Virus record (IMG/VR): IMGVR_UViG_3300031857_016701
Span: 1-64,000 of that record
Reading direction: 5' to 3' (one strand)
Length of the DNA stretch: 64,000 nucleotides
DNA from: a virus
Taxonomy: Duplodnaviria; Heunggongvirae; Uroviricota; Caudoviricetes
Positions 22,024-60,425 of this stretch are shown one piece after another. Positions within the stretch are counted from its first letter, which is position 1. Every line of letters starts with the position of its first letter. A program made the translations under genes and the position numbers. Below the pieces are notes generated by a model, which saw nothing but the letters and a program-made list of their open reading frames with translations, was not told where the DNA came from and made no database searches.

Positions 22024-22087
22024 ATATTTTTTTTCTCCCCATAAAAATAAATATTACAAAAATATTACAAAGTATATATATATCTAT

Positions 22088-22402: not shown

Positions 22403-22428
22403 ACTATACTTATTTTGTAAGGTGAGTT

Positions 22429-34951: not shown

Positions 34952-35656
34952 TTAGATTATAGTTTTGATTGGATGATAATAACCGTTGACATTTTTATCA
35001 AATGTAATATTTTCGTATTTCCAGTTAATGTAATTATCTGATTCAGTAAAAGGTTTTTGTAATGTATATCCTGATTGTTGTAATAACGTTCCTAATCTGA
35101 TTTCCGAAAACATATTATCGTATAATCTAGGATTATCATACATTCTATTTACCATTGATGATAATACTGATTTAGTAAAGAATAATCCTGACGTTGGTCC
35201 CATTCCTCCAATATTAGATGTAAGTTTTTGATTTTCGGATAGTTGTGTATACCAATACCAATCATTTAATTTTTCTTGTGGATATATCATATGACTAAAA
35301 TGAGTCATATTCAATGCATTACTATAAAAGGTTTCTAAAGAACAATTCGAATAGGTATCCCATTCTATCACTAAATAAGTTGGTAGATTTGGATAATTTA
35401 AATAAAAATCATATATCAATAAATCAGCTTCACTCCAGTATTCAATTTTCTTATTTTCGTTTAAAATATTATTTTTAGGATATAAGTCTTTTTTTGAAAC
35501 AATATGGGAACCACTAATTAAATTATGATTTTCAAATCCAACCGGATAAATATTTTTAGTTGGATTGTATTTTTTTAACAATTCATAATTTTGAATAGTT
35601 ACATCATTAACTGAATAATGTAAAAATAATATACATATTCTATTTTTTAGTATCAT
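34952..35656 (-). CDS. hypothetical protein, paralogue A of a tandem pair (glycan locus)
   Basis: Aligns with the next gene (NMFSEIRLGTLLQQSG / NMLSEIRGGTLVSQF; YHPIKTI / YHPYKYI). Start trimmed to MILKNRIC. Confidence 0.4.
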   Translation of the reverse strand: MILKNRICILFLHYSVNDVTIQNYELLKKYNPTKNIYPVGFENHNLISGSHIVSKKDLYPKNNILNENKKIEYWSEADLLIYDFYLNYPNLPTYLVIEWDTYSNCSLETFYSNALNMTHFSHMIYPQEKLNDWYWYTQLSENQKLTSNIGGMGPTSGLFFTKSVLSSMVNRMYDNPRLYDNMFSEIRLGTLLQQSGYTLQKPFTESDNYINWKYENITFDKNVNGYYHPIKTII

Positions 35657-35660
35657 ATTA

Positions 35661-36353
35661 TTAAATATATTTGTATGGGTGATAAAAATGAGGTATTTTC
35701 GTATCGATATTGATATCATCAACCGTCCAACTTATATATTTTTCAATATCATCTCGTCCACTTTTAAGAAATGTAAACTGACTTACTAATGTACCACCTC
35801 TAATTTCCGATAACATATTATCATATAAAGATTTATTTTTTAATATTTCTTCAGTACATTTTTTTAGAATATGATTTTTAAAATATATACATGTAGATTG
35901 TCCATATGAATGTAAATTATTAAATTTGTGATTATTTGGATTTAATTTTCTATATTGTTTCACCCACCACCATTCTTCATCTGCCGGACTTCGTATTCCA
36001 TTTCCAAAAAAATCAACATTTGTATCAAAAAATTCTTCTATACCAACATTACTAATTGTATCATATTCATATAAAAAATATTCATCATAATTTGGAAACT
36101 CAGAATAACCACTGTATAAAAAGAAATCGGGATTTGACCAATCTTCGGTGTGTAAATTGTCTATTTCAACCAATTCTTTGTTTTTAGGATATATTTCTCT
36201 ATTAACAAATAATGAATTTGGTAATAAATCATATCCACGGAATCCAACTGAAACAACATCCCATGTAGGATTTAATCGTTTAACAAGATTAAATCTATTA
36301 ATTGTCAATTCATCTACTTTATGATGACTAAATAATATAATCTTTGTATTCAT
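35661..36353 (-). CDS. hypothetical protein, paralogue B of the tandem pair
   Basis: See paralogue A. Confidence 0.4.
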   Translation of the reverse strand: MNTKIILFSHHKVDELTINRFNLVKRLNPTWDVVSVGFRGYDLLPNSLFVNREIYPKNKELVEIDNLHTEDWSNPDFFLYSGYSEFPNYDEYFLYEYDTISNVGIEEFFDTNVDFFGNGIRSPADEEWWWVKQYRKLNPNNHKFNNLHSYGQSTCIYFKNHILKKCTEEILKNKSLYDNMLSEIRGGTLVSQFTFLKSGRDDIEKYISWTVDDINIDTKIPHFYHPYKYI

Positions 36354-36356
36354 AGA

Positions 36357-37238
36357 TTAAATTATATATTTTATTGTATTTAACAATTTTCGTTTATTTT
36401 TCTCATTTACTTCCAAAAAATGATGTCTGATATTATCACAATTGTTTTTTTGAAATTCAAATAGATATTCTTTATTATTCAATGTATCTTCAAATTTTGA
36501 TTTATCTACAAAATAACCTTTTCTAAGTTTATATAGTGGATTTGATAAATATTCATAATTTATTACAGATGTATAAATTGATTTAATTGGAATAAATTTA
36601 ACCAAATTAGGATCTAAATATTCTTTAAATACAGGTATTTCACTGCAAATTACTAATTTACCACAACTCATTGCTTCCCATAAATAATGTCCCCATGCTT
36701 CATATAAGCTACAACATATATGAATGTTATGGTTATTAAGTTCATATACTAATTCATTTTCATTTAAATATTTATGATTAGCATCAAGAATATTAATTTT
36801 TTCTTTATAATTCCGAATCAATTCATGATTTTTTTGTATAGACTTTCCTTTTAAGAATAATATTTCTTTATTATTTTTTGTAAAAAAATATCTATCTAGA
36901 CTAAAAAATCCAGTAATAATTATATTTTTATGATATTGATCTAATATTGATTTGGCATATTTAGATTTAACAAATATATAATCAAAATTATGTAGATAAA
37001 TCAATTCATCATTAGACAACCACTCTTCATTTGGAATTAAAATATTAATTTTATTATCATTCATATATGTTTCATATATGTTTTGTATAAAAATTCCAAT
37101 ATCACTTTTTCTATTTATGATTTCTTTTGAAATATCGTATATAACCACATCAAATTCTTTTAAAACTTGAGTTAATAAAATTATGTCATTTTTTAAACCG
37201 ACTCCATTGTTCCAATAATATATGTTGACTTTAATCAT
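36357..37238 (-). CDS. GT4-like glycosyltransferase
   Basis: YEAWGHYLWEAMSCGKLVI (E-x7-E GT4 C-domain motif). Confidence 0.5.
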   Translation of the reverse strand: MIKVNIYYWNNGVGLKNDIILLTQVLKEFDVVIYDISKEIINRKSDIGIFIQNIYETYMNDNKINILIPNEEWLSNDELIYLHNFDYIFVKSKYAKSILDQYHKNIIITGFFSLDRYFFTKNNKEILFLKGKSIQKNHELIRNYKEKINILDANHKYLNENELVYELNNHNIHICCSLYEAWGHYLWEAMSCGKLVICSEIPVFKEYLDPNLVKFIPIKSIYTSVINYEYLSNPLYKLRKGYFVDKSKFEDTLNNKEYLFEFQKNNCDNIRHHFLEVNEKNKRKLLNTIKYII

Positions 37239-37278
37239 GATGTTTTACAATTTAAATTAAATAAAATTAAGATATTGT

Positions 37279-37947
37279 TTATACCGAATTGTATAAAAAT
37301 TTCATACATTCTTCATTTGTAACATAATGAAAAGAATATAAATTACTTATATCATTTGTATTATTTAATTTTGAATAGTCTCTACAACAGTTATCTTTGT
37401 TTATTAATTTAATGTTATTATTTCTAAAATTAATTCCAATACTTACATCAGTATATCCGAATTTAAAATTTTTAAAATTAATTTGTTTTATAATTTTACT
37501 ACTTATAAAAAATCCCGTCCCGCCGGCTATATAAGAAAAGTCTGAAGGTATATCTTTATGTTTAAATATTGGATTATCTGTGTTATTATTTTTATTTAAA
37601 ATATAACCGTAAACATTATCTTCATTAAAATTTTTAATCATTGTAAATACAAGTTTGTAATTTACAAAAGTATCATCATCAACAAAATACATCCATTTAT
37701 ATAAATCTAAAATATATTCGTTATTCTTTTTTATATTTATTAACGAATTTAAAATATTAATACCTTTTTCTTCATTACTACTATAACTATCATCGTCAGA
37801 TACTTTTATAATATTGTTATCTACATCATAATGATCTGAATAATACAAATGATCCATATGTTTTGCCCATGTATTTTTAACCGAAAGTATTCTTTCTTGA
37901 TTTTTATGGGTAGTTGATATTAGAACAAATAACATATTATCATACAT
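37279..37947 (-). CDS. Fringe-like / GT31-type glycosyltransferase
   Basis: WMYFVDDDTFV DxD motif in a Fringe-like context. Confidence 0.45.
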   Translation of the reverse strand: MYDNMLFVLISTTHKNQERILSVKNTWAKHMDHLYYSDHYDVDNNIIKVSDDDSYSSNEEKGINILNSLINIKKNNEYILDLYKWMYFVDDDTFVNYKLVFTMIKNFNEDNVYGYILNKNNNTDNPIFKHKDIPSDFSYIAGGTGFFISSKIIKQINFKNFKFGYTDVSIGINFRNNNIKLINKDNCCRDYSKLNNTNDISNLYSFHYVTNEECMKFLYNSV

Positions 37948-37976
37948 ATATATAAATTAATTATATTATTTTTTAT

Positions 37977-38678
37977 ATGAAATATTTTATTAATTATGCT
38001 GATAAGTTTTATTTTAAAAGTCAACTATTATCATTAAATTGTGCTAAAGACTTCGGATTCAAATGTCAATCATATTCAAAAAATGATATCGATAATGATT
38101 TTATTGAAAAAAATAAAATTATTATAGATTGTACGAGAGGGGCGGGATATTGGTTATGGAAACCATATTTAATTCTTAAAAAATTAAATGAAATAGACTA
38201 TGGTGAATATCTTGTCTATATGGATTCGGGTGCCAATTTTATTAAACCAGTAGATGATTTATTAGAAAGTATCGATGATAAGGGTATATTGGCGTTTCAA
38301 CTTAAAAATAATAAAAATAATAAATGGATAAAAGGAGATTGTTTTTTTGCAATAAATTCTATTAATGATGTATACAAATTTAAAGATGATGAACAAATAT
38401 TAGCATCATTTATTTTTTTCAGAAAAACCGATTTCTGTATAAATTTTGTTAAAAAGTGGTTATATTATGCAGAACAAAAAAACGTAATTATGGATTTACC
38501 AAATGTATTTTTTCCAAATTGTAATGGATTTATTGATCATAGACACGATCAAGCTATATTTTCATTATTGTGTTATAATTATAATATAACATGTATACCA
38601 GATATATCACAACACGGATTAATATATGATAATATAACAACGGATAGTGTTAGAATAAATCATCATAGGAATTCTTAA
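37977..38678 (+). CDS. hypothetical protein, possible GT-A-like transferase (233 aa)
   Basis: ORF on the opposite strand within the glycan locus. Confidence 0.3.
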   Translation: MKYFINYADKFYFKSQLLSLNCAKDFGFKCQSYSKNDIDNDFIEKNKIIIDCTRGAGYWLWKPYLILKKLNEIDYGEYLVYMDSGANFIKPVDDLLESIDDKGILAFQLKNNKNNKWIKGDCFFAINSINDVYKFKDDEQILASFIFFRKTDFCINFVKKWLYYAEQKNVIMDLPNVFFPNCNGFIDHRHDQAIFSLLCYNYNITCIPDISQHGLIYDNITTDSVRINHHRNS

Positions 38679-38690
38679 ATAGTTTATTTA

Positions 38691-39725
38691 CTAATTATTT
38701 AATATTTCTTCGGTTATATGCTCTAAATTTTTAGTAATTTTAAATTGAGGATAATCATTTTTTAATTTTGTTAAATCGCTATAATAACAAATATGATCTC
38801 CTTTTCTATTTTCATCTACATATTCGTAATTAAATTTTTTTCTGCCTATATGTTCCAACATTGATATACATTCTATGATTGAACATGAATTGGATTTACT
38901 TCCGCCAATATTATAAACAGCAGCAATTTGTGGATTGTTAATAAACAATTGCATGAAATTAACAACATCAAATGAATGTATATTATCACGTACTTGTTTT
39001 CCTTTATAACCATATATTTTGTATAAGGTATCGGATTTATAACATTTAACCAGATAATTTAAAAATCCGTGTAATTCTACACCACTATGATTTCTCCCAG
39101 TAAGACACCCACCACGTAAACAAACAGTTGGAATTTTAAAATATCTACCATATTCTTGCACTAAAATATCAGCTGCAACTTTTGATGCACCAAATAATGA
39201 ATGTGTTGAATGATCTATCGATAACATTTCAGAAATGCCATTATTAAAGTTATCATCGTCATAGTCATATCTAGTGTTCAATTCTTTCAATTTAATTTCA
39301 TTTGGTTTGTCACCATATACTTTATTAGTTGACATGTGAATAAACACGCAATCTTTATTAGTTTGTCTAGTTGATTCCAATAAATGTAACGTTCCATTAG
39401 CATTTGTTTCAAAATCATCAAATGGTATAGATGATGATTTATCATGACTTGGTTGTGCGGCAGTATGAATAACTACATCAAATTTAATGGTTTTAAAAAG
39501 GTTATTGACTTCTTGTTTATTACGTATATCAATAAAATAATTTCTAAAATTAGAATGTGTATTTATTAGAACATTAAGTCTATTTAAAGTGCTTCCTTTT
39601 TCACCGAAAAATATTTGACGTTGATTATTTTCGATACCATAAATTTTATGTCCTTGTGTTGCAAAATAACTAACTGCTTCTGATCCAATCAATCCTCCTG
39701 CGCCTGTTATTAACATTGTCTTCAT
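38691..39725 (-). CDS. NAD-dependent sugar epimerase/dehydratase (extended SDR). The catalytic Tyr of YxxxK is replaced by Phe.
   Basis: ITGAGGLIGS Rossmann motif. HTAAQPSHD. The motif reads LFGASKVAAD instead of YxxSK. Confidence 0.6.
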   Translation of the reverse strand: MKTMLITGAGGLIGSEAVSYFATQGHKIYGIENNQRQIFFGEKGSTLNRLNVLINTHSNFRNYFIDIRNKQEVNNLFKTIKFDVVIHTAAQPSHDKSSSIPFDDFETNANGTLHLLESTRQTNKDCVFIHMSTNKVYGDKPNEIKLKELNTRYDYDDDNFNNGISEMLSIDHSTHSLFGASKVAADILVQEYGRYFKIPTVCLRGGCLTGRNHSGVELHGFLNYLVKCYKSDTLYKIYGYKGKQVRDNIHSFDVVNFMQLFINNPQIAAVYNIGGSKSNSCSIIECISMLEHIGRKKFNYEYVDENRKGDHICYYSDLTKLKNDYPQFKITKNLEHITEEILNN

Positions 39726-40348
39726 TAAAAATTATTAATATAAATATCATCACATCCTAAAGAGATAACTTTTCTAAAGTTGTTTGATGATAACAATTCA
39801 TAGACATCATTGCTTTGATAGTTATTTTCTACAGATATAGATTTAATTTTAATGTTTTTAAAATCAATTGTTTTTAAAATGCAATATTCAGCTCCTTCAA
39901 CATCTAAACTTAGATAATCAATTTTATTACATTGATATTTTTTTATTATGTCTTGAAAAGTAATTGTTTGGACTTCTATAATTTCTACAGATTTACCATG
40001 TATAAGTAATTCATTAAAAATTCTACTTAAATGTTCGGGTTTTTGTTCACATAATAGTCCGCTTAATCCTTTTATGTATCCATCGCATGATAAAAATTTA
40101 AATATGCCTGATTCTTTATATATTGCTACATTTTCCACAGGAGATTTTCTTTTATTTTTTAAATTTTCTAATTCTTGTTTTCTTGGTTCAATTAATATTC
40201 CATTCCATCCCAAATCTTCAAAGAAAAAAGTGTTATTTTGATATTCGTGTTCAGACGCCCCAATATCTATAAAAAATCCATCTGTTACGTTTTTAAAAAA
40301 ATTTTCATATAAAAATTGATCTTGTTTATATTGACTTTTATATTTCAT
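39725..40348 (-). CDS. FkbM-family methyltransferase
   Basis: GFFIDIGASEHEYQNN FkbM signature. Confidence 0.5.
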   Translation of the reverse strand: MKYKSQYKQDQFLYENFFKNVTDGFFIDIGASEHEYQNNTFFFEDLGWNGILIEPRKQELENLKNKRKSPVENVAIYKESGIFKFLSCDGYIKGLSGLLCEQKPEHLSRIFNELLIHGKSVEIIEVQTITFQDIIKKYQCNKIDYLSLDVEGAEYCILKTIDFKNIKIKSISVENNYQSNDVYELLSSNNFRKVISLGCDDIYINNF

Positions 40349-41168
40349 TTAAATAATTTTCTTTTATGTATTTCCACGGATACAAAAATGGTTCTGCTTT
40401 AATAAAATTTTCTTTTATTACTTCAATTCTATCGTTATAATAATTAACATCTGTATAAGATAAAATATCAATTAATTCTTCTGGTTCTGTAAATAAAATT
40501 ATTCCATCTTTATTAAAATAATTAATAATCTCGGGATCTCCTTTGTAAATTGGTATAGTTCCTGTTCTAAAACAATCTAATATTTTTTCTGTAAAATATC
40601 CTTTTACAAAACAATTTTCTACTGCAATAGAATATCTGTAATCCTTATGCCATTTAAGTTTTTGTTCAACAGGATCTCCATATTTATAACCATCTAACAA
40701 TTTTTTTGTCAATTCAAAACACTTATGCCTAAAATGATGTCCGTCAGTCCATAGTTTAGATGAACAAACTATACTTGAATTTTTATTTTTTTCATATATT
40801 TTTTGTTCATTCAAAGGAATAAAATAAGAACCCCAAGGATACCAAAATCCATTTTGTATAGAATTACAAAAATCTCTATTATGTGAAAAAACTTTTTTAA
40901 ATTTAGTATTTTCTTTTATGGCTAGTTGATATATGTGCGGATGAATTACTTCTGGTTCCGTAATCCATAAGTAAATATTTTTTGATTTAAGTTGATTTAG
41001 ATAATTTAAAGCAGCTTTATCAGTAATGACAATATTTTCACTATTATTTAGTTCTTGTATTTCAAATGTGTGTTTAAAACAATAATTTAAATCTAACAAC
41101 TCCGCTTCTTTTTGAAAATTAACCGGATTTAAATTTGCTTCAAAATCAAAAAATAATATTTCTTTCAT
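40338..41168 (-). CDS. GT10 alpha-1,3-fucosyltransferase-like glycosyltransferase
   Basis: YRYSIAVENCFVKGYFTEKILD matches the GT10 FucT motif (YxFxLxFENSxxxxYxTEK). Confidence 0.5.
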   Translation of the reverse strand: MKEILFFDFEANLNPVNFQKEAELLDLNYCFKHTFEIQELNNSENIVITDKAALNYLNQLKSKNIYLWITEPEVIHPHIYQLAIKENTKFKKVFSHNRDFCNSIQNGFWYPWGSYFIPLNEQKIYEKNKNSSIVCSSKLWTDGHHFRHKCFELTKKLLDGYKYGDPVEQKLKWHKDYRYSIAVENCFVKGYFTEKILDCFRTGTIPIYKGDPEIINYFNKDGIILFTEPEELIDILSYTDVNYYNDRIEVIKENFIKAEPFLYPWKYIKENYLNEI

Positions 41169-41198
41169 TTTATAAAATATCTACAATATTAAACTCAT

Positions 41199-41855
41199 TC
41201 AAGTGGTTGTAAATTCATCAATAGAATGATTATTTTTTATAAACAAATCATAATTTTCTAAAGATGGTTTTGTTACAGTTTCAGTAAAAATGCCTGTTTG
41301 ATAAAAAAATGGTCTTGATAAACCATAGATATTATACTTATATTGTTCTTGTGATGTATAATAATCAATACCCATTCCATTTGGTTGACATATAACGGGA
41401 TACATTTTACCAATTTCTTTTAAAGAATTTAAATATTTGTCGGTTAAAAACAAAACAGCATGAAAACTAGTCATACAATTTAATTTAAAATACGAATCAT
41501 TATATTTTTCTAATTCAAAATTATAAAGCTTAGATTCTCCATTTTTAACACCCCATAATGAAGTTCCTAAATATATAGCATCAGAATCATCGGGGACATC
41601 GATATTTAATTTAAAATCTTCGGTCACAAAACAATCATCTTCTAATACTAATGCGGGTAATTTTATTTTATTCCACAATTTAATAAGTGATATGTCACAT
41701 CCAATAGGATGTGGTAAACAAATACCATGAAAAATTTCAAATGACAATTTATTTTTAAGTTGTAATGTTAATTGATTCAATCTTTCCACATTTTGTGGTA
41801 TTGTAAGTATGTAAACATTTATATTTTTTAAGTCAATTTTCATATTAACAATCAC
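41199..41855 (-). CDS. GT25-like glycosyltransferase
   Basis: YILTIPQNVERLNQL ... GCDISLIKLW ... LVLEDDCF. Confidence 0.45.
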   Translation of the reverse strand: MIVNMKIDLKNINVYILTIPQNVERLNQLTLQLKNKLSFEIFHGICLPHPIGCDISLIKLWNKIKLPALVLEDDCFVTEDFKLNIDVPDDSDAIYLGTSLWGVKNGESKLYNFELEKYNDSYFKLNCMTSFHAVLFLTDKYLNSLKEIGKMYPVICQPNGMGIDYYTSQEQYKYNIYGLSRPFFYQTGIFTETVTKPSLENYDLFIKNNHSIDEFTTT

Positions 41856-42624
41856 AATGTCTTATCTCAAATTTAATACAACCATATATATTAAACCCAA
41901 GTTTTTTTGCATTTTCAGAAAAACTAACTCCTTCTAATTTACAAGGAATTACATTTCCACATAAGTCTGTGTATTCGTCATCTACAAATAAATATCTTAA
42001 TCCACTATCAAAAACTTTACGATTAATAAATGCTGCACATTCACATCTTTCTAATTCTATTATTTCTTCGTTTGGAAATATATGAGTAAGTTCATACAAT
42101 CTAGTTACTTTACCATTTAAATTTGTATAAGATGCACAATCATGATATCCATATGTGTTATGTGTATATAAAGGCATTACAATATCTTTATTAAGTGATA
42201 ATAAATATTCTATTGAATTTTCTTGAAAATTTTCTACATCTATATCTAACCACCACAAATAATCATTATTTTTTAAATAATTATTCACGATAAAATTTCT
42301 TAAAATAACTAAATTATTAATTCTTTGTTGATAATGTTCAATTTGATACCTACATTCATGTTTTAACAAAAATCCTAAATCTAATTTTAAAATTGTAATA
42401 TCTTTATATTCATGTATAGGTATTTTCTTACTTATAATTTCATTTAATATACTCCAAGTATCATCTTCACTGTCATTTTCTATAAAACATAACGATATAT
42501 TTTCTTTTGGGTATGATAAATTATTAAGTTTATTCAAAAAATTATCTAAAAATTTAGCTCCATTTTTAACTGGAGTACCTATTAATATATTTTTATTATT
42601 CATAATGCCCATCCTTTTGCCCAA
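41845..42624 (-). CDS. GT2-like glycosyltransferase
   Basis: IGTPVKNGAKFL ... ENDSEDDT (GT-A N-terminal motifs). Confidence 0.4.
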   Translation of the reverse strand: MGKRMGIMNNKNILIGTPVKNGAKFLDNFLNKLNNLSYPKENISLCFIENDSEDDTWSILNEIISKKIPIHEYKDITILKLDLGFLLKHECRYQIEHYQQRINNLVILRNFIVNNYLKNNDYLWWLDIDVENFQENSIEYLLSLNKDIVMPLYTHNTYGYHDCASYTNLNGKVTRLYELTHIFPNEEIIELERCECAAFINRKVFDSGLRYLFVDDEYTDLCGNVIPCKLEGVSFSENAKKLGFNIYGCIKFEIRHCDC

Positions 42625-43247
42625 TGATGTACTGAATATGATTCAGGTGAAGTTATATTAAAATCCTCATTTCTTCTTTCCATTTCATACCAAGAATATG
42701 GATAAAAATATTTAATATCATAAAATTTATATGTTGGATTATTTAAATATGGATTTAAAAATTGTGTAAAAAATTCAGGACCACTAATTTTCCATATTTC
42801 ACTACTTACTTTACCGTTATAAGTAAATTTTTTAATGTTTTCTAATACAGAATCAACATAAAAGCTAACAAGAGATTCATTGACCTTAGATCCCATAATA
42901 CCTATTGCAATTTCATTATTAGGTTGATAACCTGAAAAAAAGTTGTAATTGAGTATTTCATCTGGCATTCTTTTTAATGGTTCAGTGTCCACATCAACAT
43001 ATATTCCTCCAAATTTTTCTAATATTTTAAATCTAAGTAAATCTGCTTTTAATCCAATATTATAATCACCATAATAATATTGTTTAATATCACTACTTAA
43101 AATATCAGTTGATTCAACTAATTGATTATCCCAAAAAATAAAATTATAATCTGGATATAAAATTTTCCACTTTTTTAAAAAATTAATATAATCGGAAGGA
43201 AATGGTTTATCACCTATCCATATATGATGTATGAATTTTGGTATCAT
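42600..43247 (-). CDS. GT32-type (DXD sugar-binding region) glycosyltransferase
   Basis: IPKFIHHIWIGDKPFP ... GGIYVDVDTEP. Confidence 0.55.
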   Translation of the reverse strand: MIPKFIHHIWIGDKPFPSDYINFLKKWKILYPDYNFIFWDNQLVESTDILSSDIKQYYYGDYNIGLKADLLRFKILEKFGGIYVDVDTEPLKRMPDEILNYNFFSGYQPNNEIAIGIMGSKVNESLVSFYVDSVLENIKKFTYNGKVSSEIWKISGPEFFTQFLNPYLNNPTYKFYDIKYFYPYSWYEMERRNEDFNITSPESYSVHHWAKGWAL

Positions 43248-43930
43248 ATATATTTTGAATCAAGTGTTAATGAATCAAATGTAGTATCATCAAAATCATA
43301 TTTATCAGGATTTCTTTGTTTTAGCAAACTTACTTGTTCAACTAATGGAGGCATAAACACATAATGTTTAAGTATCTTTAGTGTTTTCTTTTGTATTTGT
43401 ATATCAACTGCTGCCCAAGCTTGATGATTAGTATCAAGTAAAACTGGAATACTTGATTTTTTAATCATATAAGCATGTGTACACATAGGTGCATGTGTAG
43501 TTGTAATAATGTTATTAGTTACTTTTAATTGATAATCTTCTGGAGGTAAACAACAATGCCCAACAAAAACATATTGCCAATCATCAGGAAGTTGTTTTTT
43601 AAATTCTAAAAATCTTTCATGAAAATTTTCACATAAAAATGCATCATCTTCTAAGATAAGAATTTCTTCATGATGTAAATGCCAAAGAGTTTGCCATAAC
43701 ATATAATGAGACAATAAACATCCAATTCTACCTTGTTTAATAAAATAGTCATCTCCGTCTGGATTATCATCTTTATATGGTATTGTAGTTTTCAATCCAA
43801 ACTTTGTACCATTAATTCCTTCAAAAAATTCAACATCTAATCCATGTTGTTTAAAATGTTGTTCTGCATACTCTTTTCTTTTAGGAGTATCTTTCAATGT
43901 TAAACAAAATATTTTTGGTAAATTATTCAT
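43244..43930 (-). CDS. GT25 (LPS beta-1,4-galactosyltransferase Lic2A/LgtB-like) glycosyltransferase
   Basis: IFCLTLKDTPKRKEYAEQHF ... GRIGCLLSHYMLWQ ... LILEDDAF. Confidence 0.6.
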   Translation of the reverse strand: MNNLPKIFCLTLKDTPKRKEYAEQHFKQHGLDVEFFEGINGTKFGLKTTIPYKDDNPDGDDYFIKQGRIGCLLSHYMLWQTLWHLHHEEILILEDDAFLCENFHERFLEFKKQLPDDWQYVFVGHCCLPPEDYQLKVTNNIITTTHAPMCTHAYMIKKSSIPVLLDTNHQAWAAVDIQIQKKTLKILKHYVFMPPLVEQVSLLKQRNPDKYDFDDTTFDSLTLDSKYI

Positions 43931-44654
43931 TTTTATATATGTCTGTCCAATTACTTCCCCATTTTAATATTATTTCATGTAAACCATCATTAGAATAATA
44001 ATCTTGATTTGCATGCATATGAGTTCTGCCTCCAAAATGATCTACTCTACTATTATATACAATTCCGTTTGTAATAGATGAATCTTTTTGTTTAATATAA
44101 TTTAAATACAAATCAAAATCTTTATCTTGATAATGTGCTTTTATATTTTCATCCCATTTATAATTTGATGATCTTTTAAGACAATAAAACCAAGCGGGTA
44201 TATGAACTCTATTAATAAATATTTTTTTATACGTTACATCAGTTCGATATACATCATACAATGGTGGTTCCCAATCAAATGATTTTGTAAACGGTGAAAC
44301 TACAAACAAGTTATTAATAATATCAAACCAATTAATTAAATTATAATACCAATCATGTTGAAACATTAAATCACTATTAGCATACATTACATATTCATTG
44401 TTACATAATTTAGCACCTTCATTATATAATTTACTTAAATTAAAATCAAAAGGCATATATACAAAATTTTGTTTTTTTGATTGTACATAATCTTTAAATC
44501 TTGAATGTGAGTCAGAATCTGAATTGTTTTCAATAATCCACAGTTTACATTCATCAGGAGTATTTTTAACAAATGAATCTATCATTTCTACTTGAAATTC
44601 TTCAATCTTTTCATTTCTTGTAGAGCACGGCATTATTATATCAGAATATTTCAT
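43923..44654 (-). CDS. GT2-like glycosyltransferase
   Basis: LWIIENNSDSDS. GT-A N-terminal pattern. Confidence 0.4.
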   Translation of the reverse strand: MKYSDIIMPCSTRNEKIEEFQVEMIDSFVKNTPDECKLWIIENNSDSDSHSRFKDYVQSKKQNFVYMPFDFNLSKLYNEGAKLCNNEYVMYANSDLMFQHDWYYNLINWFDIINNLFVVSPFTKSFDWEPPLYDVYRTDVTYKKIFINRVHIPAWFYCLKRSSNYKWDENIKAHYQDKDFDLYLNYIKQKDSSITNGIVYNSRVDHFGGRTHMHANQDYYSNDGLHEIILKWGSNWTDIYKNE

Positions 44655-44698
44655 GTTTTTTGTCTTTTAATGATAAACAAAATATTTTTGGTACCATA

Positions 44699-45526
44699 TT
44701 AAAAATGATATTTATTTCTAAAAAATAAATAATTTATATCAGAAAAAGAATCTGAATGATGGTATATTTCCGGATAATTTTTGTTTCTTCCAATTTTTAA
44801 AATTTTATATTTATTAAAATCAATTAAATTTAATAAATCATTGTGATTATCTTCACAAAAATCATGAAGTTCAATCCAAAGATTTGGAGTATAATCTTTT
44901 AATATTTTTTTTGTTCCGTTTAATACTTTTATTTCTTCTCCTTCAGTATCTATTTTTATAATAGAATTATCTGTAATATCAGAATAAAAATTATCTAAAC
45001 ATAAAGTCTTACAATCTTTAATTGGTTGATATAAATCATTATTAAATCTATAAAAGTCTTCTTTACTAAATGTTTGTATTCCATTTTTATTAGAAACAAA
45101 AGCATTATAAATTTCTACATTTTTAATATTATTTAATTTAATATTTGTTTTCAAAATATTATAATTATTAGTATCTGGTTCGAGTGAAATTACTTTTTTT
45201 GCGATTCTTGAAAAATTAAGAGTATAATGTCCATGATGAGCACCAACATCAATTATAGTATCTATATTATTATTTAAATCAACATTCAATGTTTTATACA
45301 TTTCAATCAAATATGCATTTATATCATTTTGATTTGAAATATCATTCCAATCAATTTTATTATAAAAATATAATATACCATATAATATTTCCAGAGAAAT
45401 ATAATCTCTATATCCTTCATAGTCTTGTTCTCCTACATCATACCATATTTTTCCTGTTCCATCATCAATAAAAAAATTAAATTTATTGTGTGGCAATCCA
45501 CATCTTGTTTTTATTATTTTATTCAT
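44699..45526 (-). CDS. FkbM-family methyltransferase (second copy)
   Basis: IIDVGAHHGHYTLNF. Confidence 0.5.
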   Translation of the reverse strand: MNKIIKTRCGLPHNKFNFFIDDGTGKIWYDVGEQDYEGYRDYISLEILYGILYFYNKIDWNDISNQNDINAYLIEMYKTLNVDLNNNIDTIIDVGAHHGHYTLNFSRIAKKVISLEPDTNNYNILKTNIKLNNIKNVEIYNAFVSNKNGIQTFSKEDFYRFNNDLYQPIKDCKTLCLDNFYSDITDNSIIKIDTEGEEIKVLNGTKKILKDYTPNLWIELHDFCEDNHNDLLNLIDFNKYKILKIGRNKNYPEIYHHSDSFSDINYLFFRNKYHF

Positions 45527-46718
45527 TTTTATATAAATACATATTTAGGTTATCATTTTCAATTGTCTTGATACAATTGTAATTTTTTATTTCTATAATA
45601 TCTTTTCTAAAAATTAATATATAATTTGAATCAATATAATTTATAATATCAACATCACAATCTTTATTTATAACCAACAAATCTGTTTTTTGTTTTATTA
45701 TATCACTAGTATTTAATAGTTTTATACTAATATTATAATTAAAAAGATAATTTAAATGATGACATATATCATGACAAAGATCAAATTTATCATCGTATGA
45801 TATTAATTCTTTAGGATTTAAATGTAAAAGTAAACGAGACACATAAGCTCTTTGTGTTTTATATTCAACAATATTAGTTATGTTTAGTTCTTTTAATTTT
45901 AAAATTTCATCTACAAATGGATATATATAATTTTCTTTGTTGTATAGATTCAAATCTTTTATTTTGTTTTTGCTATATTCGATTTCGAATTTATATAAAT
46001 CTACATCTTTTTGATTTATACAATAATTGATTGTATTTTCATGTATATCATTAGCACTTAAATTGTTTTCTTTCCATTTAAAAAGAAAATAATATAAATT
46101 TCTTTGTTTAAAATCAGAATAATAAGGAGCAATCAAAACTTCTCCTGTTCCTCTTCTATTTCCGATTACTTCAGTTTCTTCACAATTATTTATATAACTT
46201 ATAGATTTGTAACCGATACAATTGTGAGAAATAGTTGAATTTGCTTTTTTTCTTATCGTTTCTGTCAAGTCTGAATCTTCATGGTAACATGGCCATATAT
46301 TATCATCAAATAATCCAACACATTTAATCCACTCTTTTGATGCTATAAATGATGCCCAATGATTACACCATATTAAATGAATATTATTATTTTTTTCTTC
46401 CGTAAATTTATTAAAAATTGATTCTAATGATGTGTTTTTAATAAAATAATTATCATCACACATAAATAAAATGTCTTCGTTTTGATTTAACTTAATAATT
46501 TCATTAGTTCCTCTACATGTACCATAATTATAAGCATTTTTAATTATGGTAATAGGTATATCAATTTTTTCTTTTAGATGATATCCGATTCCATTATCAC
46601 TAATATAAATTTGTTTTGGCCATACATTTTGTATAATAATATCTTTAATTAGATCATCCAAATAATCATACCGATTATATGTTATAATTCCGATAATAAA
46701 ATTTTTTGTTACATTCAT
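45519..46718 (-). CDS. GT2-family glycosyltransferase
   Basis: IGIITYNRYDYLDDLI ... MCDDN. Confidence 0.5.
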   Translation of the reverse strand: MNVTKNFIIGIITYNRYDYLDDLIKDIIIQNVWPKQIYISDNGIGYHLKEKIDIPITIIKNAYNYGTCRGTNEIIKLNQNEDILFMCDDNYFIKNTSLESIFNKFTEEKNNNIHLIWCNHWASFIASKEWIKCVGLFDDNIWPCYHEDSDLTETIRKKANSTISHNCIGYKSISYINNCEETEVIGNRRGTGEVLIAPYYSDFKQRNLYYFLFKWKENNLSANDIHENTINYCINQKDVDLYKFEIEYSKNKIKDLNLYNKENYIYPFVDEILKLKELNITNIVEYKTQRAYVSRLLLHLNPKELISYDDKFDLCHDICHHLNYLFNYNISIKLLNTSDIIKQKTDLLVINKDCDVDIINYIDSNYILIFRKDIIEIKNYNCIKTIENDNLNMYLYKNE

Positions 46719-49216
46719 ATCTTTATAATTCCTGTCTTTTCATCATTTAATCCGAAGCTAACAACAAATTTACCATCTTTTTCAATTGCACCACATGGAA
46801 AAACTACTAACGGACTAATTTCATCCAAAATTCTTTCATCTGCTTCATTTCCATGTAAAATTGGTTCACTATCAATATGAACAATTTTAAATGGAGGAAT
46901 ACTTTCAAATTTGTAATATCCCATAAAGTATTGTCTTTTAGGAAATCTCCAAGGTAAACTACTATGGAAAAAATTGTGGTAATATCCATCTTTTAATATT
47001 GGATTACTTCCCATTCTACATTCACCAAAAATCCATTCTTTACTAATATCATGAAAATTTTTATATTCGGTTATTACCTTATTTGTTTTTAAATCTACTT
47101 CAATAAGAACATGTGGATTCATTCTATATACAACCATTAAATTTCCATTATATATAAAGAAAGTCCAATTTTTTTGATGATTTTTATTTTCATTTATACT
47201 ATTTCCATTACCATCATATTCTATATGAATATTATCAATGTGATTGAAATTTTTATCAAATACTAATATTTTTTGATGTATAAATTTTACTTTATTAAAT
47301 TGATAATTAGCACACCCAACATAATATTTATTATCATGAACTAATACTCTAGGATCTTCATATTGTTCATTATCAATTTCATCGATAATTTTTAAATTCA
47401 AATCTTTTATTATATTATAGTTTTCATCCAATTCATATAATTTTAAAGTATTTTTAAACTTTTTAAATCCTATTAATATAGACTCTCTCGTCATTAATAA
47501 TAATTTATTATCATAACCTTTAAAAATACAAGAGTTAAAATAAAAGTTTTTATTTGTATATGGTAAATCTACAATTTTTACATCATTCGATTGATTGAAA
47601 ACACTATCTTGTAGTTTGGATGATATATATCCATGTAAATTTTTTTCAATTATATTATAGATATATTTATCAATATGATTGATATCTTTAATAGAAAATG
47701 TTTTAAACGTATTATCAATATAATTCACTTTAATATTAAATAATTTAAATGATAATTCTCTTTCATCATCTAACTCTGGCTTTATTTTTTTAGGAACAAA
47801 ATATGGTTGAAAAGTTTCTATTTTGGAACCTTCAATTGTAACTTTATTAATTCCATTATAAACTATTTTTCTTTCACCATTTATTTCTATAAATGTTTCT
47901 TTATCAAGAGATTCAAATTCTAATTCAATTGACTTTATTGAAGAATGATATATATAAAATTCACTTGATTTACCCATCCATCTAAATGGTATTTTATTAT
48001 CATATTCTATATCATGGAATCCGTTTCCAATTGATATCTGATATCTTTCATAGAATGTTTCATTTTTTCCAAATAATGTACAATTTAACAATTTACTGGC
48101 GTGTTTTTTATCTGCTATAGCCCATTTATATGTGTCGTCTAATTTAAATTGGAAAAAAACACTTTCATTTTTATCTAATGAATTAAGTTTATAATCCACT
48201 AAACCATCATAATCTTTACCTAGATATTCCGTATGTCCACCATAACCAGTAATAATTACTTTTTTATCATTATTAAACGCATCAAATGCACCTAAACAAA
48301 ATCCTTCGGTCTTAGTTAAATGAAAATAACAATCTCCGATATCATGTAAAGATTTAATTTCGTCATAATTTAAATTATCTTTAATATAAATGATTGGTGC
48401 ATGATTATATCCACTCGTTACTTTTATTATTTCTTCTACACATTTATCTTGTTCTTCTTTAGAATAATTTAATTTAAATGTTTTTACTATTAAAAGTACA
48501 TTATCATCTGATGTAAAGGTATTACAATATGATTCAATTGTATTTAGTATTCCTTTTCTTTCAATTAATTGACCTATACAATAAAATTTATAAGAATTTT
48601 CTAAATTTACAATATCATCGGATTTACATAAAATCATACTCTTAGATAAAAGATGTTTTAATCCAGTTTTTTTGTAAGGATAATCTACATAAATGTGTGG
48701 TTCAACTATAATAGGTTTAGTTACTCCACTATTAATAAAACACTTTTTGTTCCATTCAGTGGGTACGCTTACAATATCAACTATACTAGCATTAATAGAA
48801 TCAACCCAAGATGGTAATAATTTTTCAAATTCCCATACCGTTCTACCAATAAGAGTTTTTCCTTCTAAATTGACATTAGGAGCATTTTTAATTACATTAG
48901 TCCAAATATCAGGGGTAGAATGTACAATAATTGTATTGTAATTAATATTAACTGATGTACATGAATTTAAATATTGATGAAATCTATCATTTTCATTAAC
49001 TTCATCACTGCAATTAAAGTATTGAGTTTTTACAGGTATCTTTTTACTAATGTAGTCGTAGATATATCCTTTAGCCGCATTAGCATATCCACTAGTACCA
49101 TTCTGACAAATATACAATATAGATTTATCTTTATATAAAAAAGTATTAGCCATTGTAACATTATTCTTTCTAAAGATATAACTATGTAGTAAATTAAATT
49201 TGTCAGTAGAAACCAT
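46715..49216 (-). CDS. two-domain glycan enzyme: N-terminal GT4-like glycosyltransferase fused to a C-terminal GH130/DUF377-like (beta-propeller glycoside phosphorylase/transferase-like) domain
   Basis: EGFCLGAFDAFNNDKKVIITGYGG (E-x7-E). C-terminal half ends VVFPCGAIEKDGKFVVSFGLND, resembling the GH130 C-terminus. Size 833 aa. Confidence 0.4.
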   Translation of the reverse strand: MVSTDKFNLLHSYIFRKNNVTMANTFLYKDKSILYICQNGTSGYANAAKGYIYDYISKKIPVKTQYFNCSDEVNENDRFHQYLNSCTSVNINYNTIIVHSTPDIWTNVIKNAPNVNLEGKTLIGRTVWEFEKLLPSWVDSINASIVDIVSVPTEWNKKCFINSGVTKPIIVEPHIYVDYPYKKTGLKHLLSKSMILCKSDDIVNLENSYKFYCIGQLIERKGILNTIESYCNTFTSDDNVLLIVKTFKLNYSKEEQDKCVEEIIKVTSGYNHAPIIYIKDNLNYDEIKSLHDIGDCYFHLTKTEGFCLGAFDAFNNDKKVIITGYGGHTEYLGKDYDGLVDYKLNSLDKNESVFFQFKLDDTYKWAIADKKHASKLLNCTLFGKNETFYERYQISIGNGFHDIEYDNKIPFRWMGKSSEFYIYHSSIKSIELEFESLDKETFIEINGERKIVYNGINKVTIEGSKIETFQPYFVPKKIKPELDDERELSFKLFNIKVNYIDNTFKTFSIKDINHIDKYIYNIIEKNLHGYISSKLQDSVFNQSNDVKIVDLPYTNKNFYFNSCIFKGYDNKLLLMTRESILIGFKKFKNTLKLYELDENYNIIKDLNLKIIDEIDNEQYEDPRVLVHDNKYYVGCANYQFNKVKFIHQKILVFDKNFNHIDNIHIEYDGNGNSINENKNHQKNWTFFIYNGNLMVVYRMNPHVLIEVDLKTNKVITEYKNFHDISKEWIFGECRMGSNPILKDGYYHNFFHSSLPWRFPKRQYFMGYYKFESIPPFKIVHIDSEPILHGNEADERILDEISPLVVFPCGAIEKDGKFVVSFGLNDEKTGIIKI

Positions 49217-50166
49217 TATTTTAAATCTTTAAGTAACTTTGCAATACAAGCCATGAAAGTAATCTCACGATTAACCACCATAGCACTTTGATATATATAT
49301 TCTGCCAAAGTTAAAATCACAAGAGTCTGTTTACCGTTTGAATATTCATCTACCTTATCAAACAATACTTCATATATCTCTTCATAATGTTTAATATCAC
49401 TATCCGCAATCAATTGTCTAATATCATTAAACGCAGTTGAACTACGAATCTTCAATAATTCAACAATCTTATTTTTAACATCAACATTGGTACTGTTCAA
49501 TTCACTAATCTTAACCTTACCATTGATAACACTCTGTTGACTATAATTGAGAATCTTACGAATGTCTGGATAATATGTATTGACAATATAACCCAAATCT
49601 TCTGGTGTATATTGTACTGTTTCTTTATCAAGAATATTCTTCAAATGTACCGCAACTTCTTTCTTGCTCAATGGTTCAATCTTATATGTCTGACAACGAG
49701 AAACAAGAGCTGGAATGATCTTTTCTACATAGTTACAAGTCAAAATAAACCGTGTAGTCAAACTATAGGTTTCCATCATGTTACGAAGAGCAGCTTGAGC
49801 TTCTGGACTCAAGAAGTCAGCTTCATCAAGAATAATAACCTTAATCTTCCTAAAACCAACACTACTAGCAAAGCTTTTAATCTTAGTTCGTACATTTTCT
49901 ACACTGTTTTCATCTGATGCATTGATATACATTACATCACAATCAATATTCTTTGTAATAGCCTTAGCCAAGGTAGTCTTACCAGTACCAGCAGTACCAT
50001 AAAACAACAAATGGGGAATATCCTGTTTCTCAATATAACCCTTTACAGTGTCCTTTAACTGTTGATTTCCAATGTAATTTTCTAATGTGTTGGGACGGTA
50101 CTTCTCAACCCATAGATAATGTTGCGTTTCAGTCTGTTTAACTTCTTCAAATGCAATAAAACTCAT
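49216..50166 (-). CDS. clamp loader ATPase subunit (T4 gp44/RFC-like)
   Basis: Walker A GTAGTGKTT. Walker B ILDEADFL. SRC sensor motif (VSRCQT). Confidence 0.8.
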   Translation of the reverse strand: MSFIAFEEVKQTETQHYLWVEKYRPNTLENYIGNQQLKDTVKGYIEKQDIPHLLFYGTAGTGKTTLAKAITKNIDCDVMYINASDENSVENVRTKIKSFASSVGFRKIKVIILDEADFLSPEAQAALRNMMETYSLTTRFILTCNYVEKIIPALVSRCQTYKIEPLSKKEVAVHLKNILDKETVQYTPEDLGYIVNTYYPDIRKILNYSQQSVINGKVKISELNSTNVDVKNKIVELLKIRSSTAFNDIRQLIADSDIKHYEEIYEVLFDKVDEYSNGKQTLVILTLAEYIYQSAMVVNREITFMACIAKLLKDLK

Positions 50167-50204
50167 ATCTTTAATAGTTTACCATACAAAATCCAAATGT
50201 CAAC

Positions 50205-50240
50205 CAACAAAAAACCCCGTATACTTTGAAATATACGGGG
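50205..50240 (-). terminator. rho-independent terminator on the minus strand between the clamp and clamp-loader genes
   Basis: CCCCGTATA-8 nt loop-TATACGGGG followed (minus sense) by TTTTTTGTTGG. Confidence 0.65.
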
Positions 50241-50260
50241 TAACATTTCATTAATAATGA

Positions 50261-55924: not shown

Positions 55925-55932
55925 AATTAATA

Positions 55933-55952
55933 TATATGTAATTGTACATATA
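55933..55952. repeat. perfect inverted repeat TATATGTA-attg-TACATATA in an intergenic gap
   Basis: Seen directly. Possible operator or small hairpin. Confidence 0.4.
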
Positions 55953-55964
55953 CGTATATGTTGT

Positions 55965-56722: not shown

Positions 56723-56729
56723 TAAAGTT

Positions 56730-58393: not shown

Positions 58394-58397
58394 ATTT

Positions 58398-60379: not shown

Positions 60380-60425
60380 TATTTTTATGTAATGTATTTA
60401 AAAAAATACAAATATCAAATATAAT

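Follow-up and report, generated by a model that had tools for sequence, protein, structure and literature searches.

A glycan biosynthesis island between the clamp-loader gene and a conserved flank

The window analyzed here is a 64,000-nucleotide (nt) stretch of viral DNA (positions 1 to 64,000 of IMG/VR record IMGVR_UViG_3300031857_016701, Caudoviricetes), and its gene content points to an uncultured T4-like myovirus as the source genome. The subject of this analysis is an AT-rich glycan biosynthesis island at positions 34952 to 49216, which lies between a clamp-loader gene and a conserved gene for a protein of 198 amino acids (aa). The island is very probably cassette cargo of a recombination hot spot that an uncultured T4-like phage lineage carries between these two genes. 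Its edges coincide with the boundaries of open reading frames (ORFs): the last island ORF ends at 34952, and at 49216 the start of a gene for an 833-aa protein meets the stop of the clamp-loader gene.

Glycan biosynthesis had been proposed as the role of the island in a sequence-only reading of the window, and this role is backed by domain and fold evidence. Pfam agrees with essentially all of the family assignments made at that time, two of them (a GT25 at 41199 and a GT2 at 45519) being marginal. The count of 15 genes was too low; there are 16 ORFs (207 to 833 aa), and the plus-strand ORF at 37977-38678 had been left off the list. The near-total minus-strand layout with a single plus-strand interruption is as described, with 15 of the 16 ORFs on the minus strand and only 37977-38678 on the plus strand. 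Neighboring ORFs are spaced by −62 to +44 nt. Pfam finds glycosyltransferase (GT) family matches in 10 island proteins, plus one SDR and two FkbM methyltransferases, and neither Pfam nor the ORF list contains a fiber-like ORF in the island.

Read from the clamp-loader side, the minus-strand genes begin with that for the 833-aa protein, in which an N-terminal GT-B (GT4) domain (about aa 1 to 370; 48107-49216) is followed by an exchangeable C-terminal part, a beta-sandwich and a GH130/GT108-like propeller (46715-48106). Next is a 399-aa protein with a GT2-like GT-A domain at its N terminus (45519-46718; Glycos_transf_2, 23.0 bits at a cut-off of 23.3), 59% identical to its counterpart in a related contig, c42479. 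There follow an FkbM-family methyltransferase (44699-45526; Methyltransf_21, 3e-14), a GT2 (43923-44654; 1.8e-11), a GT25 (43244-43930; Glyco_transf_25, 1.6e-23), and a GT32-type (DXD) glycosyltransferase (42600-43247; Gly_transf_sug, 1e-12). An Anp1/GT62-like GT-A glycosyltransferase (41845-42624; Anp1, 9e-25; Glycos_transf_2, 1.8e-6) has the ATG at 42612 as its probable start, and the start of the weakly matching GT25-like gene after it (41199-41855; 23.6 bits at a cut-off of 24) is probably at 41843. A GT10-like (fucosyltransferase-type) protein (40338-41168; Glyco_transf_10, 25.2 bits) and a second FkbM-family methyltransferase (39725-40348; 2.6e-17) precede an extended SDR that resembles CDP-tyvelose/paratose 2-epimerases (38691-39725; Pfam Epimerase, 2.5e-37). 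The top PDB match of this SDR is 1orr, a CDP-tyvelose 2-epimerase (7.6e-36), and its JGI name is CDP-paratose 2-epimerase. Beyond the plus-strand gene lie a Fringe-like/GT31 glycosyltransferase (37279-37947; Fringe, 1.4e-14), a GT4 (36357-37238; Glycos_transf_1, 2.5e-9), and two tandem genes at 35661-36353 and 34952-35722.

The plus-strand gene (37977-38678) has no Pfam family, and its product found no match in a PDB sequence search. It belongs to a large uncatalogued family (4,866 cluster representatives) and is probably a transferase gene, since homologues of its product are fused to FkbM, GT47/RXYLT1, GT7C, and PLOD-GT domains. The two tandem genes, which had been noted as paralogues of unknown function, are truly paralogous (34% identity, E = 4e-40); the alignment begins at residue 27 of the second, whose true start is probably the ATG at 35656, giving 234 aa. 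They form a lineage-restricted family without Pfam, PHROG, or PDB relation. All 99 homologues are metagenomic, neither a search of the PDB with the family profile nor a comparison with PHROGs returned a match, and hhalign comparison with four island proteins (three with GT-A-type Pfam matches and that of 37977) likewise returned nothing. A single-sequence AlphaFold2 (AF2) model reached a pLDDT of only 35.

The right-hand boundary gene (49216-50166, minus strand) encodes a gp44/RFC-like clamp-loader ATPase (Pfam AAA, DNA_pol3_delta2, and Rad17) that is 90 to 97% identical at the aa level in relatives. To its right are two small replication-module genes and then a family B polymerase. This gp43-like polymerase matched 2,675 phage records, mostly T4-like, the best being Microcystis phage Mel-JY01 at 45%. 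The left-hand boundary gene (198 aa; 34315-34911, minus strand) is conserved at 64 to 95% identity in all eight relatives described below, and to its left lie genes for a DUF5661 protein and then a 645-aa protein with a cell-wall hydrolase domain.

Fixed site and mosaic cargo in related phages

IMG/VR was probed with the clamp loader and the 198-aa flank, and the full interval was rebuilt in eight contigs whose backbone proteins are 59 to 98% identical to those of the window. All eight carry a glycan island of 9.5 to 13.0 kb at exactly the same position between the same flanking genes, with a GC content of 0.24 to 0.27 against 0.32 to 0.35 in the flanks. Over the nine genomes, the window included, the islands span 9.5 to 14.3 kb at a GC content of 0.23 to 0.27. 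They contain 117 ORFs in 44 families, 15 of which are singletons and only one of which is universal: the N-terminal part of the 833-aa protein, found in nine of nine islands. Carbohydrate or decoration Pfam models are matched by 18 of the 29 families that are absent from the window. These include NodZ/GT23, GT15, GT17, GT61, GT10, GT32, GT4, two sulfotransferases, and LicD with a cytidylyltransferase, as well as WcbI, a radical-SAM/SPASM enzyme, GNAT, methyltransferases, a dehydroquinate-synthase-like cyclase, and an SDR.

Segment 37288-43940 (about 6.7 kb) is 93.7% identical at the nt level to c42479, whereas the surrounding backbone is 86 to 89% identical, and the island proteins common to the two are 84 to 98% identical. 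Since the segment is closer to this relative than the backbone is, we conclude that cassettes have been exchanged among phages. Segment 34952-37239 instead resembles three other contigs (70 to 82%), and the island of the window thus reads as a chimera. On the clamp-loader side, three relatives belonging to the close subclade (and the partial contig L002) lose homology at 48107. For the more distant subclade the end point is 48102 to 48200, except in two contigs, where homology runs at about 71% across the whole 833-aa gene. A search for repeats yielded neither att-like repeats nor direct repeats at the flanks; all that it returned were AT-rich matches expected by chance and traces of the two paralogues.

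The GC dip is still present in a relative with 75% clamp-loader identity and is missing in relatives at 53% or less. Among the latter, those with a recognizable 198-aa flank (L011, L012, and L015) have the two flanks only 1.4 to 2.6 kb apart, and the interval in L012 consists of three small ORFs. Cultured Mel-JY01 carries no island after the clamp loader; the island of the window, island A, is therefore specific to the clade of the window. Occupation in close relatives, vacancy in distant ones, and a mosaic cargo together indicate a hot spot that is specific to the lineage and at which related phages shuffle their cargo. The sequence-only reading had named two signs that would speak against its account, a homogeneous composition and conservation of the block in all relatives. 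The first is absent, since GC content is not homogeneous, as detailed below. As for the second, every close relative carries cargo at the locus, but what the cargo consists of is not conserved.

In addition, positions 1 to 5115 of contig L001 (IMGVR_UViG_GVMAG-S-1035124-35_000001) are 97.2% identical to window positions 45291 to 50405, which hold the clamp loader and island genes. This 5.1-kb contig is part of a giant-virus metagenome-assembled genome and is probably a mis-binned phage contig.

Composition and origin of the island genes

The island had been described as AT-rich, with long A/T homopolymers and Ile/Asn/Lys/Tyr-rich proteins, and each of these observations holds. GC content in 2-kb windows is 0.21 to 0.26 within the island against 0.31 to 0.34 on both sides, and island genes have a median GC of 0.237, compared with 0.329 in the 47 genes elsewhere in the window (Mann-Whitney p = 3e-8). 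Ile, Asn, Lys, Tyr, and Phe make up 43% of island residues against 32.5%, and A/T runs of at least 7 number 2.17 per kb in the island and 0.33 per kb elsewhere, a 6.6-fold difference in density. The claim of compositional distinctness stands for GC content and amino-acid usage but not for synonymous codons. The GC contrast is located mainly in codon positions 1 and 2, that is, in amino-acid usage, and synonymous codon usage is nearly homogeneous, because GC at four-fold degenerate sites barely differs (0.114 in the island, 0.145 in the rest; p = 0.07). Silent sites are close to AT saturation in the whole genome, and by this measure the island shows no detectable foreign signature. This likeness weakens the case for recent acquisition from a compositionally different donor.

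Outside the island, only two genes are as AT-rich, one of them a homing endonuclease, and a second AT-rich glycan block begins at 59702, so the island is not unique in the window. The two singletons (within 21247-23070 and at 24906-25304) are a GIY-YIG-type homing endonuclease gene with a GC content of 0.206 and a 132-aa ORF with a GC content of 0.226. An HNH endonuclease gene at 22429-23070 lies in the same stretch as the GIY-YIG gene but has backbone GC (0.350). Positions 1 to 15000 carry a plus-strand set of NAD salvage and nucleotide genes at a higher GC content (0.35 to 0.43), which encodes NAMPT, a NUDIX protein, PRPP synthetase, a nucleoside deoxyribosyltransferase-like protein, RNA ligase, DNA ligase, a SpoU methylase, and an SPFH/Band 7 protein.

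An AT shift that falls chiefly on amino-acid usage may reflect relaxed constraint, and the other AT-rich singletons of the window are selfish endonucleases. The block could accordingly be pictured as a dumping site for AT-rich accessory genes, in which glycan enzymes collected by chance under weak selection and form no coherent pathway. We consider this very improbable. None of the 16 ORFs is broken, and they stand close together or overlap; the proteins common with c42479 are 84 to 98% identical and hence conserved where shared, glycan functions dominate the cargo in nine of nine genomes, and precursor genes of separate loci complement each other.

The SDR is the most conserved island gene. 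Its homologues on metagenomic contigs are 72 to 99% identical, one of them (83%) on a 215-kb phage contig. Among 185,579 bacterial and archaeal species (one genome each), the best match to the SDR was 62%, and comparable matches were scattered over Bacteroidota, Verrucomicrobiota, Planctomycetota, Acidobacteriota, and Cyanobacteria; the best match in deposited phage records was 47%. We reject a single recent transfer from a bacterium on the grounds of this low best bacterial match and the spread of matches across unrelated phyla. A megablast search of the island against 50,697 phage records gave no match, and protein similarity to phage records, checked for three island genes, was weak (47% at best). 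The family of the 833-aa protein has just 167 members among 5.8 billion proteins. The island genes thus appear to circulate in the phage gene pool. The earlier suggestion of horizontal acquisition is therefore supported in a modified form: the site is empty in distant relatives, the cargo is mosaic, and one cassette is closer to a relative than the backbone is; no recent bacterial donor is visible, and synonymous composition is already phage-like. Cassettes from the phage gene pool are shuffled at a fixed hot spot, which differs from the single insertion of a foreign block.

A conserved GT4 domain with exchangeable partners

The 833-aa protein had been taken for a GT4-GH130-like fusion. Its GH130 Pfam match is under the cut-off, yet the fold is confirmed. 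The AF2 model (pLDDT 85.7) consists of a GT-B domain (aa 30 to 385), a beta-sandwich (394 to 510), and a five-bladed propeller (545 to 833). The propeller matched 7fip in Foldseek (2e-12; TM-score 0.70 on the target) and Leishmania MPT (1e-8), and it resembles beta-1,2-mannoside phosphorylases and the GT108 mannosyltransferases of Leishmania. For the GT-B domain, the best match among solved structures was the chlorovirus NY2A B736L transferase, and the best predicted viral matches were a Hyperionvirus GT (28% identity, 3e-26) and proteins of Terrestrivirus and Megaviridae. The N-terminal domain also matched Streptomyces phage transferases weakly; their context, beside ThyX and RNR, is uninformative on the acceptor.

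Position 48107, where homology to the close relatives breaks off, corresponds to residue ~370 and to the end of the GT-B domain. The 167 homologues are all large and multidomain; the N-terminal domain is kept, while the C terminus is swapped for a second GT4, a DUF5672 domain, or other modules. We propose that the conserved GT4 domain is an anchor or initiating transferase. It would add the first sugar to a conserved acceptor, and the variable enzymes would make the variable outer part of the glycan.

Soluble enzymes and sugar supply

Membrane segments were defined by a 19-residue Kyte-Doolittle window of at least 1.6. None of the 16 island proteins of the window has a predicted transmembrane helix, the top 19-residue hydropathy being 1.27. 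Over the 117 ORFs of the nine island versions, a single 19-residue segment exceeded 1.6, and it is a Rossmann-type glycine loop. Pfam likewise found no initiating phosphoglycosyltransferase, flippase, polymerase, ABC transporter, ligase, or heptosyl/Kdo transferase in the nine islands. The absence of membrane proteins implies that the glycan is made by soluble cytoplasmic enzymes. These would assemble a branched, partly O-methylated hetero-oligosaccharide that probably contains 6-deoxy and 3,6-dideoxy hexoses.

A GDP-mannose 4,6-dehydratase is encoded outside the island (23713-24879, minus strand; Pfam 8e-102; NCBIfam gmd, 321 bits against an equivalog cut-off of 415) by a gene of backbone GC (0.328), and we infer that it supplies 6-deoxyhexose precursors. 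FkbM-family enzymes such as NoeI O-methylate fucose. Because the GT10-like gene adjoins an FkbM methyltransferase gene in the island, a methylated deoxy-sugar oligosaccharide is a reasonable prediction for the product. The supply of nucleotide sugars would be shared between the backbone GDP-mannose dehydratase and the second variable locus, from 59702 onward. A gene for a NifU/IscU-type Fe-S scaffold stands directly after the GDP-mannose 4,6-dehydratase gene (23270-24879 for the pair, minus strand), both at backbone GC. Separately, the E1-type 3-dehydrase at the end of the window, if a true E1, would require an Fe-S cluster.

A second glycan locus, and DNA as an improbable acceptor

The second locus, locus B (59702-64000, plus strand; GC about 0.23 to 0.26), consists of a conserved GT2 gene followed by variable cargo: a 622-aa fusion of a nucleotidyltransferase and a HAD phosphatase, a GT61 protein, and a truncated E1/RfbH-like 3-dehydrase. 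The 3-dehydrase ORF runs off the window from 63352 and matches the E1/RfbH 3-dehydrase of the 3,6-dideoxyhexose pathway at 3.8e-50 and ColD at 1e-36. This enzyme probably provides a dideoxy-sugar that is finished by the 2-epimerase of island A. The 622-aa protein (60426-62294, plus strand) combines a sugar-1-phosphate nucleotidyltransferase with a HAD phosphatase of the 1xpj/EcbF-BcbF type and matches 289 phage records, mostly of T4-like coliphages and Acinetobacter phages. Its C-terminal ~270 aa gave no PDB match and no detectable similarity to kinases.

Locus B is preceded by a block of backbone GC (55016-60379, plus strand, ending with the GT2 gene) that encodes a PD-(D/E)XK nuclease, a 176-aa protein, a GT4 of the MshA/BshA-like kind ("GT4-conflict"), a dUTPase-like 226-aa protein, a 435-aa GT-B-like protein, and the GT2. 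The GT2 and the five genes upstream of it are 74 to 98% identical in close relatives. The cargo past the GT2 is found in no close relative; other glycan genes stand there instead, homologues of the SDR, FkbM, and GT10-like genes of island A among them, so both loci draw on one gene pool. In Flavobacterium phage vB_FspM_immuto (41% aa identity) and Mel-JY01 (38%), the conserved part of locus B is likewise followed by a glycan cluster, of 3.4 to 7.5 kb. The block is also syntenic in IMG/VR contigs at about 60% identity, and homologues of the 435-aa protein (41 to 46%) occur in about 48 further contigs. The presence of locus B in a Flavobacterium phage is a weak hint that the host belongs to the Bacteroidota; no tRNA gene in the window is informative on the host.

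One contig of a related phage, L044 (positions 10001 to 21035; ENA ERZ28593922 scaffold_9, 215 kb), has an SDR-FkbM-GT10 trio at the locus B position. Its neighbors are two DegT aminotransferases, a GT11, a SIS isomerase, a transaldolase, a GHMP kinase, a nucleotidyltransferase, and a GFO/IDH oxidoreductase, which make up a heptose- or pentose-type nucleoside diphosphate (NDP)-sugar pathway.

Recent work on T4-like phages means that DNA must join the virion and host lipopolysaccharide (LPS) as a third candidate target (PMC13326640). RB69 and DLP3 make poly-arabinosyl-5-hydroxycytosine with an MshA/BshA-like GT4 and a module of kinase, phosphatase, and pyrophosphorylase (PMC13326640). In the window, some or all of the transferases would then build glycans on a hydroxylated pyrimidine, as also occurs in T4 and in metaviromic 5hmC glycan clusters, with variability driven by host nucleases. 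The island does adjoin replication genes, and the pyrophosphorylase and 1xpj-type phosphatase domains of the 622-aa fusion resemble parts of the UDP-arabinose module RB69 gp51-53/AfhE-AfhF (PMC13326640). Moreover, the conserved MshA/BshA-like GT4 and the GT-B-like protein flank a dUTPase-like gene beside the polymerase, an arrangement that recalls DNA-glycosylation clusters, and phage DNA glycosyltransferases resemble LPS enzymes (bioRxiv 10.1101/2023.12.21.572611).

We nevertheless regard DNA as an improbable acceptor. The sole thymidylate-synthase homologue of the window (16674-17816, plus strand; 380 aa with two insertions, Gln165 apparently replaced by Met) keeps Asp169 and Asn177 (RSNDVPLGLPYN) and scores 260 bits as thyA against a cut-off of 108. 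Published criteria (PMC13326640) thus place it outside the 5hodCMP synthases and dCMP hydroxymethylases. A pair of methyltransferase and TET enzymes was not seen within the 64-kb window either. Known DNA glycans have at most 3 sugars made by one to three transferases, whereas the island has at least 10 transferases, with methyl-, sulfo-, and acetyl-transferases in its variants.

Transcription signals

A strong intrinsic-terminator hairpin followed by a sigma-70-type extended −10 promoter (TTGACA-N16-TGgTAAACT) lies just upstream of the clamp-loader gene (50176-50241, minus strand) and is the probable start of a transcript running into the island. Both subclades keep this hairpin-promoter arrangement, although the hairpin of subclade 2 has another sequence. 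The 833-aa gene follows without a gap, its start overlapping the clamp-loader stop codon. Of the five extended −10 promoters in the window, none is inside the island. The cassette would thus be cotranscribed with the clamp loader from an early sigma-70-type promoter. Scanning for generic sigma-70 promoters was of no help, as it gave 186 sites where 173 ± 13 were expected, and no T4-type TATAAATA motif occurs in the intergenic gaps of the island. The arrangement resembles the promoter-stem-loop cassettes that Arbiol et al. reportedly described in 2010 as mediating module shuffling in T4-type phages. A hairpin followed by an extended −10 promoter is also found at 820-884 (plus strand), and three more such promoters are at 2909, 9379, and 20129.

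The acceptor: virion proteins or host envelope

The acceptor may be the proteins of the phage particle itself, fiber or capsid, a reading that we favor tentatively. The sugars would be attached in the cytoplasm, ahead of particle assembly, as in chloroviruses, Megavirinae, and mycobacteriophages, and every phage variant would have a surface glycotype of its own. In the experimentally settled cases known so far of soluble glycosyltransferases in lytic viruses, the virus's own components are modified, and a virion target suits the virus-specific conserved anchor enzyme. Seroconverting phages that modify the host O-antigen, on the other hand, are temperate and use membrane proteins (Gtr, Oac).

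A candidate acceptor is encoded 3.5 kb from the island. The 676-aa repeat protein (29399-31429, plus strand) has 18.5% Ser and 12.6% Thr, 31% together, as well as 13% Asn, carries NISASG/VTSSNIS motifs, and is probably a fiber. It has no Pfam or PHROG family, it varies among relatives, and two late-promoter-like TATAAATA motifs precede its gene.

Several points weigh against a virion target. N-x-S/T sequons in the 676-aa protein number 30 against 27 ± 4 expected and so are not enriched beyond composition; the 64-kb window contains no capsid genes; and the fold likeness of the anchor domain to giant-virus transferases says nothing direct about the acceptor. Early cotranscription with replication genes would fit host remodeling at least as well, and the promoter and operon assignments themselves come from motif matches only. 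Extension of the bacterial lipooligosaccharide (LOS)-type core also uses only peripheral soluble transferases, GT25 among them. Since LOS synthesis is likewise soluble, the missing membrane proteins are compatible with a host-envelope target. Finally, the islands of cyanophages and pelagiphages have been read as serving host LPS modification, an assumed function (PMC1079782, PMC7029224).

Host-envelope remodeling is accordingly a serious competitor, and the virion target is placed only slightly ahead of it. Here, soluble transferases would extend a host lipid-linked acceptor at the cytoplasmic face. Soluble enzymes alone would need either lipid A-core (as in LOS) or hijacked host export, in which an undecaprenyl-linked intermediate is exported by the host. 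The altered surface glycan would block competing phages or keep progeny from adsorbing to lysing cells. The transferase families present (GT25, GT4, GT2, GT10, and GT32) typically take part in LOS/LPS outer-core synthesis. Bacterial O-antigen and LOS loci are likewise low in GC and hypervariable within conserved flanks, and the promoter is of an early type. This reading was also given for the 24 "LPS" genes of P-SSM2 (PMC1079782), the pelagimyophage islands (PMC7029224), and S-SCSM2R (PMC12801897).

Other evidence runs counter to a host-envelope target. The initiating, exporting, polymerizing, ligating, and Kdo/heptosyl-transferring enzymes named above are missing from nine of nine islands, and the one conserved enzyme is virus-specific and not akin to bacterial core transferases. 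Proven phage O-antigen conversion is the work of membrane Gtr or Oac proteins in temperate phages. At least 14 kb would also be a heavy cost for exclusion, which T4 manages with single small proteins.

A more specific form of the virion reading, which we put forward as speculative, is that the island is the "serotype locus" of the virus particle: the GT4 domain would prime a fiber or capsid protein, and the cassette would write a strain-specific methylated deoxy-sugar coat. If so, the coat would be diversified by recombination among cocirculating phages, as bacteria diversify O-antigens. With a glycan-foraging member of the Bacteroidota as the host, such a coat could bait the glycan receptors of the cell surface or shield the particle. 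A hypervariable virion glycome would then be on record for the first time in a tailed phage of Gram-negative bacteria.

Discussion

Large aquatic phages repeatedly give about 10% of their genome to glycan synthesis, and to our knowledge nobody has shown where the glycan is attached in any of them. The identity of the target would class these genes as auxiliary host metabolism, virion structural determinants, or antirestriction systems, and it would tell whether diversifying selection of the O-antigen kind acts on phages as well. The lineage described here is a clean natural experiment, with one site, near-identical backbones, at least 9 cargos, and one anchor enzyme as a handle. Cultured immuto and Mel-JY01, which carry the sister locus, are experimental proxies. 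The cassettes are also a source of uncatalogued transferases, namely, the 37977 family and the paralogue family.

Comparison with known systems sharpens what kind of locus this is. Bacterial O-antigen, capsule, and LOS loci are likewise low-GC hypervariable cassettes with conserved flanks, combine transferases with sugar-nucleotide and decoration genes, and diversify by recombination; LOS loci share the restriction to peripheral enzymes. Unlike them, the island lacks wzx/wzy, wzm/wzt, an initiating transferase, a ligase, and heptosyl/Kdo transferases, and its carrier is a lytic-type phage. In the nine islands, neither the initiating polyprenyl-phosphate transferase nor the membrane export and polymerization proteins of Wzx/Wzy- or ABC-dependent loci were found. 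As for LOS outer-core loci, GT9 or GT30 occurs in none of the 44 families, while peripheral-only transferases, GT25 included, are present. The membrane GtrA/GtrB/Gtr proteins and the acyltransferase of seroconverting gtrABC/oac systems are also lacking, the islands having no membrane proteins.

Among viruses, chloroviruses and Megavirinae resemble the window in their soluble transferases, nucleotide-sugar pathways, and methyltransferases. Their clusters have 6 to 33 genes of clade-specific content (PMC10117803, PMC9614988). They differ in being eukaryotic viruses whose glycans are chemically proven on capsid or fibrils, and sequence identity to them is at most 28%. In mycobacteriophages, according to the account of Freeman et al. 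2023 given in PMC12619734, soluble transferases decorate capsid and tail-tube proteins in the cytoplasm. The cases in that account are siphoviruses of Actinobacteria with one to four transferase genes beside structural genes, while the island has at least 10 beside replication genes. The "moraphage" jumbo phages, as portrayed in the same source, are of a different lineage and were set aside.

T4-like aquatic phages have islands of the same kind. The window has a T4-type backbone and a cluster of GT and sugar-nucleotide genes of variable content between core modules, as glycan islands of that group do. The host recognition cluster of pelagimyophages is likewise nonsyntenic, contains GT and deoxy-sugar genes, and is bounded by conserved modules (PMC7029224). 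It lies in the structural module (VrlC-gp14), however, includes tail fibers, and is dominated by GT8, whereas the island of the window is at the edge of the replication module and has neither fiber genes nor GT8. The cyanomyoviruses P-SSM2, S-SCSM1, and S-SCSM2R share with the window a T4-like backbone and presence or absence of the clusters between close relatives (PMC1079782, PMC12801897). P-SSM2 has its 24 "LPS" genes in two clusters, and P-SSM4 is without both (PMC1079782). The cyanomyovirus clusters also contain many GTs (GT2, GT10, GT11, GT25, and GT1/4), NDP-sugar epimerases, and even a GH130 gene. The highest transferase count reported for a marine phage genome is 13 (PMC12801897); the 64-kb window alone has up to 15 transferase genes. 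The window differs from the cyanomyovirus clusters in the position of the island directly after the clamp loader, in the conserved anchor GT4, and in the 44 families found in nine genomes.

Immuto and Mel-JY01 have the same order as locus B of the window, PD-(D/E)XK nuclease, GT4, 435-aa GT-B-like protein, and GT2 (38 to 41% aa identity), although immuto differs from the window in having a family A polymerase. Glycan-gene hyperplastic regions are thus a known kind, already established in aquatic T4-like phages (cyanophages and pelagiphages). What is specific here is the site, where the replication module meets the conserved genes downstream of it, the density of transferases, the enzymology without membrane steps in nine variants, the diversity of cargo on near-identical backbones, the signs of recent cassette exchange, and an anchor domain with swappable partners.

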